A DNA stretch of 59,150 nucleotides from Nanobdellota archaeon (GTDB taxonomy: Archaea; Nanobdellota; Nanobdellia; Woesearchaeales; DATGWN01), in NCBI GenBank assembly GCA_051819685.1, contig JBNJGI010000003.1, positions 1 through 59,150 on the forward strand. Reading direction: 5' to 3'. Numbering within the stretch: the first letter of the stretch is position 1; the number at the start of each line of letters is the position of its first letter. The notes beneath the pieces are model-generated. The model worked only from the letters and a program-made list of their open reading frames with translations. It had not been told where the DNA came from and made no database searches. Made by a program: the position numbers and the translations under genes. Below are positions 18,859 to 59,150 of the stretch, one piece after another.

Positions 18859-19773
18859 TTATTTATACATTTCCCTGCATTCTTTTATAATTTCATTTTT
18901 GTCTATTTTGTATTTTTTAAGTAATTCTTCTGGAGTGCCGGATTCTCCAAATGTGTCTTGAATTCCTATTATTTTTATAGGTATTTTTGTTTCAGATAAA
19001 AGCTCTGCTACTGCACTTCCTAATCCTCCTGCTTTTTGGTGTTCTTCAACTGTTATTATTTTTCCTGTTTTTTTTGCTGATTTTAAGATTGTTTTTTTAT
19101 CTAATGGCTTTATTGTATGGCAATTTATTATTTCAGTGGAGATTCCTTCTTTTTTTAATTCTTCAGCAGCTTTTAGGGCTTCATGTAAACAGATCCCACA
19201 TGATATTATTGTTAGATTCTTACCAGTTTTTAGTTTGTATGCTTTTCCCAATTGTATTTTACTTTTATTTGATATTATCGGAAATTTATGTCTGCTTGTT
19301 CTTATGTAAACAGGGCCTTTTTCTTTAGCTATTTGTTTTGTTAATTCTTCTGCTTCCTGAGAATCTGAAGGTACAACCACTTTTAGATTTGGTAAAACTC
19401 TTGTTATTGCTATGTCTTCAAGAGCCTGATGTGTTGCTCCATCTTTACCTACTGTCAATCCAGCATGAGATCCATGAATTTTGACATTTAAGTTTGAATA
19501 ACATATGCTTACTCTTAATTGATCCCAGTTTCTTCCAGGGGAAAATACTGCAAAAGAATTTACAAAAGGTGTTTTTCCTAATGAAGCTATTCCTGCTGCT
19601 ACACACATCATATTTTGTTCAGAGATTCCACATTGAATAAATCTTCGAGGATATTTTTCTGCAAAGTATTGGGTTCTTGTCGATGATTTAAGGTCTGCTG
19701 TTAAAGCATATATTTTATTATTTTTTCCTGCTTCTAAAAGCCCTTTTCCGTATCCATCTCTTATGCTTTCCAT
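18859..19773 (-). CDS. Transketolase, C-terminal (pyrimidine-binding) subunit
   Basis: 304 aa. ...RFIQCGISEQNMM...NLKVVVPSD... is typical of split archaeal transketolase. Confidence 0.9.
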   Translation of the reverse strand: MESIRDGYGKGLLEAGKNNKIYALTADLKSSTRTQYFAEKYPRRFIQCGISEQNMMCVAAGIASLGKTPFVNSFAVFSPGRNWDQLRVSICYSNLNVKIHGSHAGLTVGKDGATHQALEDIAITRVLPNLKVVVPSDSQEAEELTKQIAKEKGPVYIRTSRHKFPIISNKSKIQLGKAYKLKTGKNLTIISCGICLHEALKAAEELKKEGISTEIINCHTIKPLDKKTILKSAKKTGKIITVEEHQKAGGLGSAVAELLSETKIPIKIIGIQDTFGESGTPEELLKKYKIDKNEIIKECREMYK

Positions 19774-21221
19774 TTTAATTCTTGTATGGCTTTTTCAGCT
19801 TGTTCTTTGTTTGGTGCTTTTCCATGCCAATGATAATCATTTTCCATGAATGATACTCCTTTTCCTGGTATTGTGTTTGCAATTATTGCTTTTGGTTTTT
19901 TATGTTGTTTTTTTATTGTTTTTATGAATTCTTTTATGTTGTTTCCATCACATTCAGATACATCTAAGCCAAAGGATTCTAATTTGTTTTTTAAGTTATT
20001 TAATGGCATTATTTGTTTTGTGTTTCCATCTAATTGTATTTTGTTTCTGTCTATTATTATTGTTAAATTTGAAAGATTTTCTTTGTTTGCTAACATGAAT
20101 GCTTCCCAACATTGTCCTTCGTCTAGTTCACCGTCACCACAGATTGCATACACTTTGTTCGGTTTTTGTTCTCTTTTTAATACAATTGCAACTCCGACTG
20201 CCATCGATAGTCCTTCAGCTAAAGGCCCTCCTGAGTTTTCAATTCCTCGTATTATGTTATGAGGGTGTCCTTGTAACAAAGAATCTATTTTCCTTAGTTT
20301 TTGTAGTTCTTTTTTTGGAAAGTATCCTGTTTCTGCCAGTGTTGCGTATAGTATGGGACAAACGTGTCCGTTCGATAAGAATAAATAATCTCTTTCTGTC
20401 CATTTTGGGTTTTCAGGATTGTGTTTTAATATGCGAAAGTAGAGTGTTGTGAGGATGTCAGCTAATCCTAAGGGTCCTGCTGTGTGCCCACTTCCTGCTT
20501 TTTCTAGCATTTTTATAACTTCTATTCTTAATTTTCTAGATTTTTTTTCAAGTTCTTTTTCACTTAATCCTGGATTGATAGATTTTCTCATAATTTCAAG
20601 GTTTTTTACAGGATTGCTATATATGAATGAGCCTGAATTGATTGCATCGCAACCTTTTTTGGCTAGTCTTTTCGCAATTGATGGTTTGACTCCTCCATCT
20701 GCTTGTATGTGTATTCCAGAATATTGATTTTTTATGTTTTTAATTTTTTTTAGAGTATTTTCTTCAAATTCCTGTCTTTCTTTTCCAGGGTGTACTCCCA
20801 TTAGAAGAATTTCTGTTTTTTCTTGATATATTGTTTCTAATACTTTATTGCTTATTTTGGTTTCAGGGTTAAATGCTATTGTAGGTATTAATTTGTTTTG
20901 TTTTATTGTTTTTATTGCTTCTTCTAAGTTTTTTATTGTTTCGTAATGTATTATTATTTTTTTGAATCCTTTTTGTTTTAGTTTTTTTATTTCCTTTAAG
21001 GGTTCTTTTATCATTAAGTGTGCTTCGTAGTTATGATTTTTATCAAGGTGAGGTATATTTTTGACTTCGATTGATTTTTTAGAAACAAATTTTCCATCCA
21101 TTATATCAATTTGAATGTTTTTTGTGATTTTTTTGAGTATTCCTAATCTTTTTGCGAATGCTTGTGAGTCTTTTTTTATTTGATCTTGTGTTACAAAGAC
21201 TGTTGGTATTACTTTTTTCAT
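19761..21221 (-). CDS. Fusion protein: ribulose-phosphate 3-epimerase-like domain (aa ~1-215) plus transketolase N-terminal (TPP-binding) subunit
   Basis: RPE motifs: IDIMDGKFV, AHLM, AFNPET, LLMGVHPGKERQEF, IQADGGV. These are followed by GSGHTAGPLGLADIL...GDGELDEGQCWEA of the transketolase N-terminus. Confidence 0.8.
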   Translation of the reverse strand: MKKVIPTVFVTQDQIKKDSQAFAKRLGILKKITKNIQIDIMDGKFVSKKSIEVKNIPHLDKNHNYEAHLMIKEPLKEIKKLKQKGFKKIIIHYETIKNLEEAIKTIKQNKLIPTIAFNPETKISNKVLETIYQEKTEILLMGVHPGKERQEFEENTLKKIKNIKNQYSGIHIQADGGVKPSIAKRLAKKGCDAINSGSFIYSNPVKNLEIMRKSINPGLSEKELEKKSRKLRIEVIKMLEKAGSGHTAGPLGLADILTTLYFRILKHNPENPKWTERDYLFLSNGHVCPILYATLAETGYFPKKELQKLRKIDSLLQGHPHNIIRGIENSGGPLAEGLSMAVGVAIVLKREQKPNKVYAICGDGELDEGQCWEAFMLANKENLSNLTIIIDRNKIQLDGNTKQIMPLNNLKNKLESFGLDVSECDGNNIKEFIKTIKKQHKKPKAIIANTIPGKGVSFMENDYHWHGKAPNKEQAEKAIQELKWKA

Positions 21222-26936: not shown

Positions 26937-27749
26937 TTATTCTATTGAAAATTCTTTTAACACATCCTCTTCCATGAAATGTAGTTTTGAAGGTATAATT
27001 AAAGAATGTAGAGGGCCTCCAAATTTATGTTTCATTACTTTTTTTAAAGTTCCGTAAGCAATTTCCTGCTCATTTGTTCCAAGTCTTGCAGTTCCTATCA
27101 CTTTTGTGTTCTTATCAATTACTTTTTCTTTGTATTTATCTTCAAGATCAAGAAGTTGTTTTAATGCTTTATTTACATCCATAAAACGAGGTTTTAACTT
27201 CTTTTCTATTCCTTTAAGCATATTTTCCCGAGCTGTTTCAGCTATTTTTATATCAAGAAGAATAAGTGTGTGTGCACCTATGCTTTGATTTTCTTTTATA
27301 CAATCATAAACATTTCGGGGCATCCAGTTTTCTTCAAAAAATACCATCGATGTTGTTTTTCCAAACTTATACACTTCAAACCCTATGTTTCCCACAGCGT
27401 TCATTATAGAAGCATTATTTATTATATTTGTCTTAACACCTGACTGCTTAGCCCTTAATAAAAAATCAGAGTGTGTGGTTGCACAAAATACATCTCCTGC
27501 TACTAAAAAAGCCACTTCAAAATCTTTAGCTTTCGATATTATGTCATCAGACCTTTGTTCAACCATTTCTCTTGATGCCAATATGATATTTTTACCATAT
27601 AATTCTTCCATCTTTTCGATTGATGAGAAAGGCATTATTGAAGTATAATGCTCAAGATAAATATAATCGCATTTCTTTATTGTTTCCAATCCTTTAATAG
27701 AAATATCTTTCTCGTCACTTAATCCCAAACCTATCATGTGTAATGTCAT
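26937..27749 (-). CDS. dphB: Diphthine synthase
   Basis: MTLHMIGLGLSDEKDISIKGLETIKKCDYIYLEHYTS is a tetrapyrrole-methylase-fold Dph5 signature. 270 aa. Confidence 0.9.
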   Translation of the reverse strand: MTLHMIGLGLSDEKDISIKGLETIKKCDYIYLEHYTSIMPFSSIEKMEELYGKNIILASREMVEQRSDDIISKAKDFEVAFLVAGDVFCATTHSDFLLRAKQSGVKTNIINNASIMNAVGNIGFEVYKFGKTTSMVFFEENWMPRNVYDCIKENQSIGAHTLILLDIKIAETARENMLKGIEKKLKPRFMDVNKALKQLLDLEDKYKEKVIDKNTKVIGTARLGTNEQEIAYGTLKKVMKHKFGGPLHSLIIPSKLHFMEEDVLKEFSIE

Positions 27750-27792
27750 AATTTTTTATAAATCGTTTTCCTTTATATTTTTAACTAAGAAA

Positions 27793-27947
27793 TAGTAGAC
27801 GACATAAGATTGTTATATTTTTATATTGCCTTGCAGAAAACCCAGAAATTTGGCTAGACTAATTCTGTCAAATTTCGTAATAGTTAAACCATTAGTGTTT
27901 AATTATCCTGCGCCATATAAAATATACTTTATTTATGTCATCTACTA
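27793..27947 (-). mobile_element. MITE-B copy B1 (full length, 155 bp)
   Basis: Ends TAGTAGACGACATAAG ... TTTATGTCATCTACTA form 15-16-bp TIRs. The interior is near-identical (reverse complement) to 43988-44141 and 45300-45454. Confidence 0.8.
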
Positions 27948-27956
27948 AAATTCACC

Positions 27957-28110
27957 AGCATTTTCATAAAAATGAGTGATATTGCGAATAATTGTTAAGT
28001 CCTTTATAAGAAATTGATTAAATTTGCGCTTCTTTAACTTGTTTGATTTCTTACAGCAAACCCAAATATTACTTCAATGTAATACCATCACTTATTTTGT
28101 TTTATGTGTA
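27957..28110 (+). mobile_element. MITE-A copy A2 (154 bp) with a perfect 8-bp TSD
   Basis: Flanked by AATTCACC at 27949-27956 and 28111-28118. TIRs are degenerate at the extreme tips. Confidence 0.8.
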
Positions 28111-28155: not shown

Positions 28156-28229
28156 GGGCCTGTAGTATAGTCTGGACAGTACAACCGGCTTCGGACCGGT
28201 AAACCGGGGTTCAAATCCTCGCAGGCTCA
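28156..28229 (+). tRNA. tRNA-Arg (anticodon UCG)
   Basis: Manual cloverleaf. Acceptor stem GGGCCTG/CAGGCTC, D stem GTAT/GTAC, anticodon stem ACCGG/CCGGT. Anticodon loop is CTTCGGA and the T arm is CGGGG-TTCAAAT-CCTCG. Discriminator A; no encoded CCA. Confidence 0.85.
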
Positions 28230-30628: not shown

Positions 30629-30673
30629 ATAAATAATATTGTTAATCCTCATTTATAAATTTATTCAAAATCT

Positions 30674-30827
30674 GGCACAATCAAAAAAGTGAGTGATATT
30701 GCGAACAAATGTTCGTTCCTCCGGGCGAACTTGATTGAATTTACGCTCCTGTAAGTCGTTTTACTCCTTACCGCAAATTCAAAAACTACTTCAAGGCAAT
30801 ATTATCACTCATTTTGTTGCATGTGCC
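30674..30827 (+). mobile_element. MITE-A copy A3 (154 bp, best-preserved reference copy)
   Basis: Perfect 8-bp TSD CAAAATCT (30666-30673 / 30828-30835). The TIRs are GGCACAATCAAAAAAGTGAGTGATATTGCGAA and AAGGCAATATTATCACTCATTTTGTTGCATGTGCC. Confidence 0.85.
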
Positions 30828-33692: not shown

Positions 33693-33746
33693 TTTTATTC
33701 ACATAATTAACTAATTTATGGATGCTTAAAAGATTTGTGAAATATC

Positions 33747-33894
33747 GGTATATTCATAAAAATGAGTGATATTGCGAATTAATATTTAATACGGGTGAAC
33801 TTGATTTAATTTGCACTCCTGTAAGTCGTTCCATTTCTTACCGCAAATTCAACTACTTCAAGACAATATAATCACTGATTTTATTTTATGTGCC
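33747..33894 (+). mobile_element. MITE-A copy A4 (148 bp)
   Basis: Flanked by GAAATATC (33739-33746) and GAAATATT (33895-33902), a 7/8 match. The interior is collinear with A3. Confidence 0.8.
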
Positions 33895-37274: not shown

Positions 37275-37316
37275 AAATTAATAAAATTGAATGTATATAA
37301 AACATTTTTGGTTTAT

Positions 37317-37381
37317 TGGCACAATCACAAAATTCAAGCTTTACTTTAAGGCTATATTATCACTATTTTTATTTTATGTGC
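37317..37381 (+). mobile_element. MITE-A copy A5 (65-bp internally deleted derivative retaining both ends)
   Basis: GGCACAATCACAAAA...AAGGCTATATTATCACTATTTTTATTTTATGTGCC. Its interior matches the A6 subtype. Confidence 0.7.
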
Positions 37382-37428
37382 CAGATAATAAAAAAACATT
37401 TAAAACTTAATTAAATTATATTTTAGTA

Positions 37429-43831: not shown

Positions 43832-43983
43832 ACCATATAAAATAAAATGAATGATGATATTGCCTTAAAGTAAAGCTTGAATTTAAAGTTATTAGTTAAA
43901 GACTTACAGGAGCGCAATTTCAATCAATTTTGCCCGGAGGTCGAATATTTGTTCGCAATATAACTCACTTTTGTGATTGTGCC
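43832..43983 (-). mobile_element. MITE-A copy A6 (152 bp, inverted orientation)
   Basis: Its reverse complement is collinear with A3 (GGCACAATCACAAAAGTGAGTTATATTGCGAACAAATATTCGACCTCCGGGC...). Abuts MITE-B2. Confidence 0.8.
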
Positions 43984-43987
43984 AAAA

Positions 43988-44141
43988 TAGTAGACGACAT
44001 AAATAAAGTATATTTTATATGGCGCAGGATAATTAAACACTAATGGTTTAACTATTACGAAATTTGACAGAATTAGTCTAGCCAAATTTCTGGGTTTCTG
44101 CAAGGCAATATAAAAATATAACAATCTTATGTCGTTAACTA
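43988..44141 (+). mobile_element. MITE-B copy B2 (154 bp)
   Basis: TAGTAGACGACATAAATAAAG...CTTATGTCGTTAACTA. Near-identical to 45300-45454. The track ORF 43924..44124 lies inside it and is spurious. Confidence 0.8.
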
Positions 44142-44187
44142 AAAGAGAAGAACTTTTTTAAAAGGTAAAAAAATATCCGCTGGTTTT

Positions 44188-45135
44188 ATGATTAATTTAC
44201 ATATAGAGCCTAGAAAAGTTTACAGCTGGGATGAATTTGTAAGGGATAAAGGTGAATATTCGATATCTCTTGATGGTTTCGTTAATTCTAAGACTATAAG
44301 GGATTCTAAAGGCCCTTGCGCTAATTATAATCATCATGAAGATGTTGATCGACTTTCTACAAGATCAACTTCAGAACAGGTTTATATGGATATTAATACT
44401 GGCTTATTTAAAATTTTCAGGAAAGGAGAAGAACCTTTTGCGAATATTTTCATTAATGACCCTGATGAAGATACATGTCTTTCTTGGTGGCTTTTGAAAA
44501 ATTACAGAAAAGTTAGTAATTATTCTGGTAATAGGATTGAAAAACTTGTAGATTTTGAGGATAAAATGGATTGTACAGGTGGAGCTTTCCCTTTTATGGA
44601 TAAAGAGATGAAAATGGAAGCTGCATGGATTTTTGAACCGTATAATAAAGCGAAATTAAAAGGAAAAATTGCTGATATGGGAGTTGAAGATATGAAAAAT
44701 ATCGTTTCTGATGTAGAAAAAAGAATTGATGCTTATATTGTTGATAAATCTGAAAAAATCAAGCTTAAAGGGCATTATAAGGTTTTGAAAGAAGGTAATG
44801 GTTGGACGATGGTTAAAGAGACTGGTCCTGAATCAAGATTAGCAATGTATGATGATGGAATTAATGCTTTTATATCTATCATAGCGGAAAGATTGGATGG
44901 AAGCAGGGTTGTTACTTTAGGTAGAAAATCAGAATGGATACCTTTCTATATAGAAGAAGCTTATAAAAGATTGAATGAAGCAGAAAAAGAAATTATATCA
45001 AATGATAACTGCTGGTCTGGAAGCAATCTTTATGGAGGATCTCCAAGGAAAACAGGTACTAAATTATCATTGGAAAAAATATGTGAAATTATAAATTCTG
45101 CAAGTAAAGCAGTATCTCCGATTAATGATTATTAG
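44188..45135 (+). CDS. Uncharacterised 315-aa protein with His/Asp-rich motifs (possible metal-dependent hydrolase); flanked by direct MITE-B copies
   Basis: Motifs NHHEDVD (aa 48-54) and NDPDEDT (aa 90-96). I cannot assign a family by eye. Confidence 0.6.
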   Translation: MINLHIEPRKVYSWDEFVRDKGEYSISLDGFVNSKTIRDSKGPCANYNHHEDVDRLSTRSTSEQVYMDINTGLFKIFRKGEEPFANIFINDPDEDTCLSWWLLKNYRKVSNYSGNRIEKLVDFEDKMDCTGGAFPFMDKEMKMEAAWIFEPYNKAKLKGKIADMGVEDMKNIVSDVEKRIDAYIVDKSEKIKLKGHYKVLKEGNGWTMVKETGPESRLAMYDDGINAFISIIAERLDGSRVVTLGRKSEWIPFYIEEAYKRLNEAEKEIISNDNCWSGSNLYGGSPRKTGTKLSLEKICEIINSASKAVSPINDY

Positions 45136-45256
45136 TTGTTAAAAATTATTAATAAAGGGATGTAATTCATTTTCAGGAGGAATAATATTATTGAAAGAAT
45201 TACTAACTTTTACGAAAATTAGCTGATTAGTCATTCTAATTTTCTGCTTTTACTCA

Positions 45257-45296
45257 AAGGCAATATAAAAATATAACAATCTTATGTTGTTGATTA
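45257..45296 (+). mobile_element. Partial MITE-B right end, tandem duplicate of the right end of B3
   Basis: 45257-45299 is identical by eye to 45415-45457 (43 bp). The match includes the copy-specific mutations and the 3 bp TTC beyond the element. Confidence 0.75.
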
Positions 45297-45299
45297 TTC

Positions 45300-45454
45300 T
45301 AGTAGACGACATAAATAAAGTATATTTTATATGGCGCAGGATAATTAAACACTAATGGTTTAACTATTACGAAATTTGACAGAATTAGTCTAGCCAAATT
45401 TCTGGGTTTTCTGCAAGGCAATATAAAAATATAACAATCTTATGTTGTTGATTA
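45300..45454 (+). mobile_element. MITE-B copy B3 (155 bp)
   Basis: Full-length copy in the same orientation as B2. It ends 43 bp upstream of ATG 45498. Confidence 0.8.
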
Positions 45455-45497
45455 TTCTTAAAGAAAATTTATAAAATATAAGTTCAATTAATTTTTT

Positions 45498-46391
45498 ATG
45501 GAGAAAAATAATTTAAAAGTAATATTCCATAGAAGGGCTGAATGGCTAAGAAATTATTCTGATGAGATTTATGATAAAATTATTACTTGTCTTCCTCCTA
45601 ATATACATTCTGTCAAATATAGGATAAAAGAATTTGATTCTTTTTTTAATAAGACTTTGAGGAAAGGGTATAAGAATCCTTTAAAACAATGTACTGATAT
45701 TCTTGGTTTCAGAATTATCTGTCTTTTCCATAATCAGGTGGAAAGCGTAAGAAATTCTTTGGATAAGCAATTCAATATTATTGAAGATTTTGAGAGAAAA
45801 AAAAGCTGTGATCAGTTTTCATATCAATCAAGACATATAGTTTGTGAAATGAAAGGGCTAAGGTTCGAAATACAGATAAGAACTATCCTTCAGGAAGCCT
45901 GGGCTGAGATAGAGCATTATTTTAATTATAAGCAGATTGGTATAGATGAAAAGAATCTCAGGAAAATTAATGCTCTTGCTGCACTTTTTGAGATTGCAGA
46001 TAGCCAGTTCGAAAATATTTATAATAATTATAACGATATTAAGAATAAGCCTTTAGATTCTGGAGATATGACTCCCGAAGCGCTTTATTATTATTGTAAA
46101 GATAAATTTCCTTGGGCTTGGAAAATGCCTGAGCAATTCAATGTAGAAAATATTGAGGAGTATAATAAAATTGTTAATTTTGCAGCTAAAAAAGGTATTA
46201 GTACTATTAAGCAGATTGATGAAGCTTATAAACGTAATAAAGATGAGATTGATAAATATGATAAGTATCATGTGAATGAGATTCTTGATAATCCTGTACA
46301 ATGGCCAAAAATTTATGAGAAAGTAAAAAAGACTAATCATTTTTTTAGTCCTATTATGATACTTTCAATAATTTTGAAAGAAATGATATAA
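45498..46391 (+). CDS. RelA/SpoT-domain protein: stand-alone (p)ppGpp-synthetase-fold enzyme (small alarmone synthetase / toxSAS-like) with an uncharacterised C-terminal extension
   Basis: Ordered synthetase motifs YRIKEFDSFFNK, DILGFRII, YQSRH and EIQIRTILQEAWAEIEH. No HD hydrolase, TGS or ACT regions. Confidence 0.75.
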   Translation: MEKNNLKVIFHRRAEWLRNYSDEIYDKIITCLPPNIHSVKYRIKEFDSFFNKTLRKGYKNPLKQCTDILGFRIICLFHNQVESVRNSLDKQFNIIEDFERKKSCDQFSYQSRHIVCEMKGLRFEIQIRTILQEAWAEIEHYFNYKQIGIDEKNLRKINALAALFEIADSQFENIYNNYNDIKNKPLDSGDMTPEALYYYCKDKFPWAWKMPEQFNVENIEEYNKIVNFAAKKGISTIKQIDEAYKRNKDEIDKYDKYHVNEILDNPVQWPKIYEKVKKTNHFFSPIMILSIILKEMI

Positions 46392-51968: not shown

Positions 51969-52027
51969 TTTAATTAATGTTATGAAGAAGCAGTATTTAT
52001 AAATTTAAGTTTTTAATGGCACAATCA

Positions 52028-52132
52028 CAAAAATAAGTGATATTGCGAGCCATGTTTCACTTCTTACCGCAAATTCAAAACTACTTCAAGGCAATATTAT
52101 CACTTATTTTGTTGCATGTGCCTTTTTAAGGG
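52028..52132 (+). mobile_element. MITE-A copy A7 (105-bp internally deleted derivative)
   Basis: Both TIRs are intact. Flanked by TTTTTAAT (52020-52027) and TTTTTAAG (52133-52140). Confidence 0.8.
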
Positions 52133-54396: not shown

Positions 54397-54455
54397 TTTT
54401 TTATTGTCTTGCAGAAAAACCAGAAATTTTGGCTAGACTAATTCTGTCAAATATT
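54397..54455 (-). mobile_element. MITE-B relic B5 (internal fragment)
   Basis: TTGTCTTGCAGAAAAACCAGAAATTTTGGCTAGACTAATTCTGTCAAAT matches the B1 interior. Confidence 0.6.
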
Positions 54456-54462
54456 GACAATT

Positions 54463-54500
54463 ATAATAAATTGAGTGATATTGTGAAAAATGTTTGTTAA
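54463..54500 (+). mobile_element. MITE-A relic A8 (left-TIR fragment)
   Basis: AAATTGAGTGATATTGTGAAAAATGTTTG compared with AAAATGAGTGATATTGCGAACAAATGTTCG. Confidence 0.55.
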
Positions 54501-58683: not shown

Positions 58684-58845
58684 TATAAAAAGGATTTGAA
58701 CAACCTTTTAATATTTTTCTTAATTTAGTCAAAGACAGAATATTCGTTATATTTTTATTTATGTGGGCGACTAATATAAATTTTGATAATTTTTAGTATA
58801 ACGAAAGAAATTCAATAAGAAATACTATTATTTTCGTAAATTTAT

Positions 58846-58903
58846 AAACTACTTCAAGGCAATATAATCACTTAGTTATTTCATTCTATTTATTTTATGT
58901 GTC
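58846..58903 (+). mobile_element. MITE-A relic A9 (right end)
   Basis: AAACTACTTCAAGGCAATATAATCACTTAG...TATTTTATGTGTC. A second TIR-like fragment, ATTTTTATTTATGTGGGC, lies at 58751-58768. Confidence 0.6.
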
Positions 58904-58973: not shown

Positions 58974-59150
58974 ATGGTAAAAAGTAGAACCGTAAAGAAA
59001 GTAAGTCCTAAAAAAGGATTAAAGAAATCTGCTGCAAAAAATACTGCAGCGAAGAAACCTGTGGCTAAGAAATCTAATGCGAAGAAAAGTACTGCAAAGA
59101 AACCTGTGGCTAAGAAATCCACTGCGAAGAAAAGTACTGCAAAGAAACCT
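58974..59150 (+). CDS. Lys/Ala-rich repeat protein (histone H1-like / nucleoid-associated candidate); C-terminus runs off the window end
   Basis: MVKSRTVKKVSPKKGLKKSAAKNTAAKKPVAKKSNAKKSTAKKPVAKKSTAKKSTAKKP..., in frame to the last base of the window. Confidence 0.6.
   Translation, partial: MVKSRTVKKVSPKKGLKKSAAKNTAAKKPVAKKSNAKKSTAKKPVAKKSTAKKSTAKKP
59052..59150 (+). repeat. 45-bp tandem repeat (2.2 units) encoding KKPVAKKS(N/T)AKKSTA
   Basis: Units are 59052-59096, 59097-59141 and a partial 59142-59150. They differ at 2 positions. Confidence 0.8.

Follow-up and report, generated by a model that had tools for sequence, protein, structure and literature searches.

Introduction

Stand-alone synthetases of the RelA/SpoT homologue (RSH) type, the small alarmone synthetases (SASs), have been described as nontoxic enzymes and as toxins, and in this study we compare with them a two-domain SAS gene found at positions 45498..46391 (+ strand) of a 59,150-nucleotide stretch of DNA from a Nanobdellota archaeon (GenBank assembly GCA_051819685.1, contig JBNJGI010000003.1, positions 1 to 59,150; the whole stretch is called the window below). 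RelP (SAS2, YwaC) and RelQ (SAS1, YjbM) of Firmicutes are nontoxic (p)ppGpp synthetases. The toxSAS enzymes of two- and three-gene modules—FaRel, FaRel2, PhRel, PhRel2, and bicistronic CapRel—share a conserved, often overlapping operon with their antitoxin (PMC7229694). In fused CapRel (CapRelSJ46, PDB 7ztb), a single open reading frame (ORF) holds an N-terminal SYNTH domain and a C-terminal extension, with no separate antitoxin (PMC9712102). Less conserved than any other part of CapRel, its antitoxin domain is a three-stranded antiparallel β-sheet plus a helix termed the pseudo-zinc-finger domain (pseudo-ZFD), in which a YXXY motif is conserved (PMC9712102). As for Archaea, earlier surveys reported only sporadic SASs, named "divRel," for example, in Methanosarcina (PMC3153485). 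According to a later survey, which predicted a bacterial origin for them, genes annotated as RelA/SpoT occur in 41.7% of the genomes of Woesearchaeota, 21.3% of those of Pacearchaeota, and 19% of those of Nanoarchaeota (PMC8407392); for this lineage, the statement that RSH genes are rare in Archaea, made in a preliminary description of the locus from its sequence alone, therefore does not hold. We found no biochemically characterized archaeal RSH enzyme in the searchable literature.

On balance, we favor, by a modest margin over doubt, the view that the gene is a chromosomal resident and that its product is an active small alarmone synthetase of RelP/RelQ-like type, regulated by a C-terminal domain specific to the lineage. 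Its main value lies in offering a tractable entry to the question of whether archaea use alarmones.

A conserved RelP/RelQ-like catalytic core

The gene is complete and monocistronic, begins with ATG, and encodes 297 amino acids, as established from the ORF list and Pfam. In a Pfam scan of the full protein, RelA_SpoT (PF04607) was the sole domain; the match takes in aa 42-146 and model positions 2-110 of 113 and scores 73.3 bits (cutoff, 27; E=2.4e-20). HD, TGS, and ACT domains were not found, in line with the preliminary description. The four SYNTH motifs that it had listed lie at the residues it gave (Y41-K52, D67-I74, Y109-H113, and E124-H140), and its identification of a stand-alone RSH synthetase with an extra C-terminal region is correct. 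An AlphaFold 2 (AF2) model of the full-length protein (mean predicted local distance difference test [pLDDT] score, 90.3; predicted template modeling [pTM] score, 0.72) divides it into four parts, all encoded on the + strand. These are an N-terminal helix (aa 1-35, 45498..45602; modeled helix, 3-31), which is the least conserved segment, with a mean pairwise identity of 0.21 in the close group; the SYNTH catalytic core (aa 36-150, 45603..45947), recognized by invariant alignment columns and by its top Foldseek matches, RelP and RelQ; a long helix (aa 151-185, 45948..46052; modeled helix, 151-183) equivalent to the C-terminal helix of RelP/RelQ, with an identity of 0.58-0.72 within groups; and a C-terminal helical-bundle domain (aa 186-297, 112 residues, 46053..46388), defined by AF2 on the domain alone.

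Twelve residues (R42, K44, K52, D67, G70, R72, Y109, H113, E124, Q126, R128, and T129) are invariant across an alignment of 35 family members, as is the EAWAEIEH block. They match, with the same spacing, R241/D264/R269/Y308/E323 of RelSeq and K80/K88/D107/E174 of RelP, in which the adenine of ATP lies between two arginines, the lysines contact its phosphates, Mg2+ is bound by the aspartate and glutamate, and the base of the acceptor stacks with the tyrosine (PMC7983052). Because the catalytic residues are invariant and spaced as in RelSeq and RelP, the protein looks, from its sequence, catalytically competent. R42/R72 and Y109 also correspond in role to the adenine-sandwich arginines and the G-loop tyrosine of CapRel.

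By both sequence and structure, the best matches are RelP and RelQ (6ewz, 6fgj, 6fgk, 5dec, 5ded, and 5f2v). A profile of the family matched their PDB chains with E values of 2.5e-25 to 3.5e-20, in a match that extends to profile position ~197 and thus takes in the long helix, compared to 5.8e-6 for CapRel (7ztb), ~0.05 for FaRel2, and 0.004-0.1 for long RSH chains. Foldseek likewise ranked RelP/RelQ first, with E ~5e-10 over ~196 columns including the long helix, against 4e-5 for CapRel. The protein therefore shares with RelP/RelQ the catalytic residues, their spacing, and the long helix that follows the core; it differs from them in that identity is only ~22-27%, that RelP/RelQ lack the 112-aa helical domain, and that it is archaeal. 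It falls outside the RelQ and RelP subfamilies, being 297 aa long compared to the usual ~210-230 aa and scoring 46.4 bits on the NCBIfam RelQ equivalog GTPPhKinYjbM, below the threshold of 320. The fusion of a SAS core to a C-terminal helical domain is thus an architectural variant within a known enzyme class.

The same comparisons bear on what the enzyme may use as acceptor and where its product may act. Exported alarmone synthetases (PMC12691689) and (pp)pApp-producing SASs (PMC7229694) exist in bacteria, and DPANN archaea are host-dependent, so that one can picture a SAS with a nonguanine acceptor, such as a (pp)pApp synthetase, or one with a non-cell-autonomous role, with a product that acts on the host of this presumed ectosymbiont. 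We consider this improbable: neither Tas1 nor any other (pp)pApp synthetase chain in the PDB matched the family profile at E<=1, whereas the match to RelP/RelQ is strong; (pp)pApp synthetases bear distinct conserved motifs (Kurata et al.); and on reading the N-terminal sequence we saw no signal peptide or transmembrane segment, nor are there secretion genes adjacent to the SAS gene.

A rare C-terminal helical domain

The preliminary description had found no recognizable fold in about 150 C-terminal residues. This holds for the 112 residues of aa 186-297 and not for aa ~147-185, which form the RelP/RelQ-type long helix. Modeled alone with 22 homologous segments, aa 186-297 folded into seven helices and no strands with AF2 (pLDDT, 93.4; pTM, 0.84). 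Pfam scans of the 22 C-terminal segments returned scattered chance matches only and no domain for this region, and Foldseek retrieved nothing significant from the PDB (best E=4; template modeling [TM] score, 0.26) or BFVD (best E=1.1). An exhaustive profile search among 1.84 billion representative proteins yielded 22 clusters at E<=1e-3, nearly all of them proteins 285-366 aa long that end in the domain; when stand-alone versions were sought, most short matches proved to be gene fragments, starting within the helix that precedes the domain. The domain is therefore a very rare module with no recognizable fold. Four metagenomic proteins of 89-145 aa (P0255, P0257, P0258, and P0259) carry its last helices only, including the [FY]F-x-P...R motif, and one of them (P0258) has an unrelated N terminus; these may be stand-alone relatives of a subdomain or fragments.

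The most conserved elements of the domain are F204 and the [FY]F-x-P motif around P285. Within subgroups, its identity is ~47%, where the core keeps 56-74% and the N-terminal helix 21-48%; between subgroups, the identity of the domain falls to 19%, so that it diverges faster than the core. Given that ~47% identity is kept within subgroups, we do not regard the domain as hypervariable, a difference from CapRel, whose C-terminal domain is its least conserved part. In the set of relatives taken from GTDB genomes, detection of the domain was limited to the archaeal clade and an Acidobacteriota-type group (L016, P0036, and P0037); it is missing from the Massilia, Methanothrix, and other bacterial relatives of that set.

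With a SYNTH domain and some 110-150 extra C-terminal residues in one ORF, the protein is laid out like fused CapRel (PMC9712102), and it is this likeness, together with the faster evolution of the C-terminal domain (identity of 0.19 between subgroups), that gives weight to the idea of a fused toxin-antitoxin or antiviral sensor. Under this idea, the C-terminal domain would keep the synthetase inactive until a viral protein binds; once active, the enzyme would abort the infection, either by pyrophosphorylating the 3'-CCA ends of tRNA or by depleting ATP through (pp)pApp synthesis. In further support, the sole PADLOC match of the protein is a candidate single-gene defense protein, PDC-S33, whose model (349 aa) is of a similar length class and is reached up to position ~300/349 by three archaeal members. 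The match of the protein itself, however, scores 42.7 bits and covers aa 38-172 only, that is, the catalytic core; its relatives score a low 36-71 bits, mostly on the catalytic domain; no broad family sharing the C-terminal domain was seen; and our literature search found no mention of PDC-S33. Nor does the structure of the domain resemble that of CapRel. The preliminary description had proposed comparing the two, and the comparison speaks against kinship: the domain is an all-α bundle where the pseudo-ZFD has a β-sheet, 7ztb is absent from its Foldseek matches, and YXXY is not conserved, occurring in 12 of the 35 members and then mostly in the middle of a long helix. Moreover, judged by profile E values, the catalytic core does not group with the CapRel/PhRel toxSYNTH domains, the value being ~20 orders of magnitude better for RelP/RelQ than for CapRel (~1e-25 versus 5.8e-6). 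Taking these data with the genomic evidence given below, we judge a fused CapRel-like toxin unlikely.

A related and, in our estimation, still more doubtful proposal is that the helical bundle is a sensor of unprecedented fold, which would turn on the pyrophosphokinase upon a cue from an archaeal virus or from the host. If true, the protein would be an archaeal functional analogue of CapRel with an unrelated sensor and the first case of toxSAS-type immunity in Archaea. Whether the domain is a regulator, an oligomerizer, or a sensor decides between a signaling and an immunity role.

Distribution and evolution of the family

Database searches placed 12 full-length proteins from metagenome contigs closest to the SAS (43-54% identity), followed by proteins of 306-347 aa with 36-38% identity, several of them from Woesearchaeota and Nanoarchaeota metagenome-assembled genomes, and, farther away, by many bacterial proteins of ~320-370 aa that match in their N-terminal half only. 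Named homologues of the SAS and of the 315-aa gene upstream of it come from Pacearchaeota, Woesearchaeota, and Nanoarchaeota, and the gene content of the window is archaeal (STT3/AglB, RFC, a Rad50-like ATPase, archaeal flagellin, GyrB, and SHMT). Since the chromosomal genes are archaeal and the homologues belong to these three groups, the description of the setting as DPANN-like is sound. The preliminary description had considered the gene more likely to be acquired; at 28.5% GC, it equals the window (28.4%), and base composition gives no signal of recent horizontal transfer.

The phylogeny of the family is a rough neighbor-joining tree, bootstrapped by a fast distance method that warned of saturated distances, so that its support values are rough as well. 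With this proviso, the subgroup of the window received 99% support, the Woesearchaeota-type subgroup 100%, and all DPANN sequences jointly 61%, with the Acidobacteriota-type group, which has the C-terminal domain, as sister of the DPANN clade (52%). The Methanothrix relative (L059) falls apart from DPANN, among bacterial sequences. This topology, as far as sequences can tell, fits an old transfer from Bacteria to DPANN, then vertical descent and loss, in agreement with the bacterial origin predicted previously (PMC8407392). The family would thus have entered the Pacearchaeota/Woesearchaeota-type DPANN lineage long ago and then been inherited mostly vertically, with losses. Archaeal divRel (for example, in Methanosarcina acetivorans) and the DPANN RelA/SpoT genes are similar cases—synthetase-only RSH proteins ascribed to bacterial transfer, with no obvious cognate hydrolase (PMC3153485, PMC8407392)—reported at the level of annotation; the two-domain architecture is not described there.

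The archaeal family is absent from 2.9 million viral contigs, in which we found only six relatives at 30-35% identity, the same range as that of bacterial relatives; this argues against the fused antiviral toxin. Two genomes labeled "uncultured Methanosarcinales archaeon" in GTDB (L009 and L015) carry a Woesearchaeota-type SAS with the C-terminal domain, and L009 has neighboring genes in common with Woesearchaeota/Nanoarchaeota loci; either these taxonomic labels are questionable or the family reaches beyond DPANN.

Genomic neighborhood and the search for a partner gene

Downstream, a convergent P-type ATPase gene lies 4 bp after the SAS stop codon. Upstream, a TATA-like AT-rich box read from the sequence (TTTATAAAATAT, 45467..45479, + strand, ~25 bp 5' of the ATG) is a putative promoter of the SAS gene itself, at a position that would suit an archaeal leaderless or short-leader mRNA. 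No antitoxin-sized ORF was found in the flanks; the 362-bp upstream spacer holds ORFs of <=40 aa only, all inside copies of a repeat resembling a miniature inverted-repeat transposable element (MITE).

Beyond this spacer lies a conserved hypothetical gene of 315 aa (44188..45135, + strand), for which we ran a separate family search and which has no Pfam, PADLOC, or PDB match. It is adjacent to the SAS gene, on the same strand, and each of the two is preceded by a MITE-like copy, an arrangement that speaks for a classical two-gene toxSAS with the 315-aa protein as antitoxin; the preliminary description had named it as a possible immunity or sensor part. Its family is far larger and better conserved than that of the SAS, with 129 matches at E<=1e-3 among Pacearchaeota and Woesearchaeota hypothetical proteins (37-56% identity among the 120 matches listed). 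RelA_SpoT genes are absent from the five distinct neighborhoods of its homologues, and no homologue of the 315-aa gene lies near the SAS gene in any of the other 14 archaeal loci. In addition, the two genes are separated by the 362-bp spacer with 1.5 MITE-like copies, and the same element also precedes an unrelated TP_methylase gene. Because the SAS and 315-aa genes do not co-occur, the two-gene explanation is effectively refuted, and we give it next to no credence; the 315-aa gene is rejected as an antitoxin or sensor partner. A homologue of the 315-aa protein that is 55% identical to it (P0123, L091) sits on a contig with genes of bacterial type, namely, those for the GlyS β subunit, a TsaD-family protein (PF00814), and a PAS-HisKA-response regulator protein.

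When all ORFs up to 4 kb away from the SAS gene were clustered across 15 archaeal loci, no conserved neighbor proved common to more than 4 of the 15, so that the SAS lacks, in these loci, a conserved antitoxin operon of the toxSAS type. The archaeal contexts that we inspected differ from each other and are all housekeeping (SecY/AspRS; L21e/Rpb4; TGT/Vut_1/S9/L13; CSD/PNP; Orc1/PolD), with ribosomal proteins and RNA polymerase subunits among them, and no defense or mobile genes flank these loci, again unlike CapRel, with its prophage and defense-island settings. Three Woesearchaeota/Nanoarchaeota loci (L003, L007, and L011) have the order IleRS-TGT-Vut_1-SAS in common, and on account of this shared synteny we take the gene to be vertically inherited in that subclade, a stability that does not favor a fused toxin either. 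A small conserved ORF without Pfam match, of 87 aa in L003 (5712-5975) and 69 aa in L011 (4725-4934), lies ~25 bp 5' of the SAS gene; it is absent from the syntenic L007 and from the subgroup of the window. It could be a subclade-specific partner of the SAS; as a general antitoxin it was rejected, being present in these two Woesearchaeota loci only.

The preliminary description had considered a toxSAS-like toxin or defense effector more likely than a housekeeping enzyme. With no conserved partner gene in the 15 archaeal loci, a RelP/RelQ-like core, an all-helical C-terminal domain unlike that of CapRel, and no mobile, defense, or viral association, our data for the most part do not support this view.

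Proposed function

If the gene indeed encodes an active RelP/RelQ-like synthetase, the enzyme would take the β,γ-pyrophosphate from ATP and attach it to an acceptor nucleotide at its 3'-OH; with GDP, GTP, or GMP as the most likely acceptor, the product would be (p)ppGpp or pGpp. Its C-terminal helical domain would probably regulate this activity through autoinhibition, oligomerization, or partner binding, and its role would be one of signaling rather than toxicity.

Several points weigh against this proposal. No archaeon has yet been found to contain (p)ppGpp, the species tested being without RSH genes (PMC8646023), and a motif scan of the 59-kb window found nothing convincing in the way of a SpoT/Mesh1-type HD hydrolase. 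By its sequence, the family is not RelQ itself, and the acceptor specificity of the enzyme is not readable from sequence; tRNA-targeting toxSASs, for their part, have no clear sequence signature (Kurata et al.), so that no signature rules out a tRNA substrate here. The distribution of the family is patchy, with ~12 archaeal species genomes in a pattern-limited GTDB scan. Finally, a distant 343-aa relative in Massilia sp. SR12 (L017, 2506-8248) lies between genes for a phage-type integrase, a DUF6161 protein, and a resolvase, a mobile-island context unlike that of the archaeal SAS loci. The missing tRNA signature, the patchy distribution, and the Massilia island also count in favor of a fused toxin, and a self-inhibited fused toxin with a sensor other than that of CapRel retains some plausibility.

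The first of these points is also the reason for interest in the RelP/RelQ-like synthetase: because no (p)ppGpp has been detected so far, while the species examined were without RSH genes, an intact and conserved RelP/RelQ-like SAS in DPANN is a direct handle on whether any archaea make alarmones. It opens a second question, namely, which targets alarmones would have in cells with eukaryote-like translation and transcription machinery. If the SAS simply makes (p)ppGpp, the result would be a modest extension of known biology into Archaea.

Repeats and other features of the window

The repeat next to the SAS gene is a real MITE-like element of ~155 bp that matches no Rfam family. It has terminal inverted repeats of 15 bp (TAGTAGACGACATAA...TTATGTCGTCTACTA), which are perfect in the copy at 27793-27947, and its 33-nucleotide core occurs 4 times in the window, with 0 expected. 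Alignment identified three full copies and a partial one. The full copies lie upstream of a TP_methylase-family gene (27793-27947, - strand; gene at 26937..27749), upstream of the 315-aa gene (~43990-44145, + strand), and directly 5' of the SAS gene (45301..45458, + strand), where the element is a neighbor and not a functional part; the partial copy (3' half) is at 45226..45300 (+ strand). The copy next to the SAS gene shares 92% identity with the inverted copy at 27772-27951 and, over 110 nucleotides, 100% with 43988-44097. All three full copies are oriented alike relative to the gene that follows and end 40-44 bp 5' of its start codon (~40 bp before the ATG in the case of the SAS gene), which suggests either a preference for promoter-proximal insertion or a shared regulatory sequence. 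As a marker of a mobile or defense island the element was rejected, because it also precedes unrelated housekeeping genes such as the TP_methylase gene; from 27 to 59 kb, many of the spacers between genes contain repeats. In the preliminary description, the element and its proximity to the SAS gene were seen correctly, and the term "bracketed" was loose: repeat copies lie upstream of the SAS gene at 43834-44145 and 45226-45458, and the next one downstream (51993-52122) is ~5.6 kb off.

A second family of dispersed intergenic repeats, up to ~175 bp long, with copies 60-98% identical and no Rfam match, is found at 27936-28110, 30653-30827, 33726-33894, 37293-37382, 43834-43984 (inverted), 51993-52122, 54435-54495, and 58845-58890; one of its copies abuts a tRNA-Arg gene (28156-28229). 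At the edge of the window, 59022-59141 shows a 15-nucleotide tandem periodicity (AAGAAAnnTGnnGCn) in an element cut by the window end, which in the + strand frame AAG-AAA would encode a lysine/alanine-rich repeat. Lastly, a 486-aa ORF at 19761-21221 (- strand) joins a ribulose-phosphate 3-epimerase (aa 33-201) to a transketolase N-terminal domain (aa 230-485) and looks like two pentose-phosphate enzymes fused into one.

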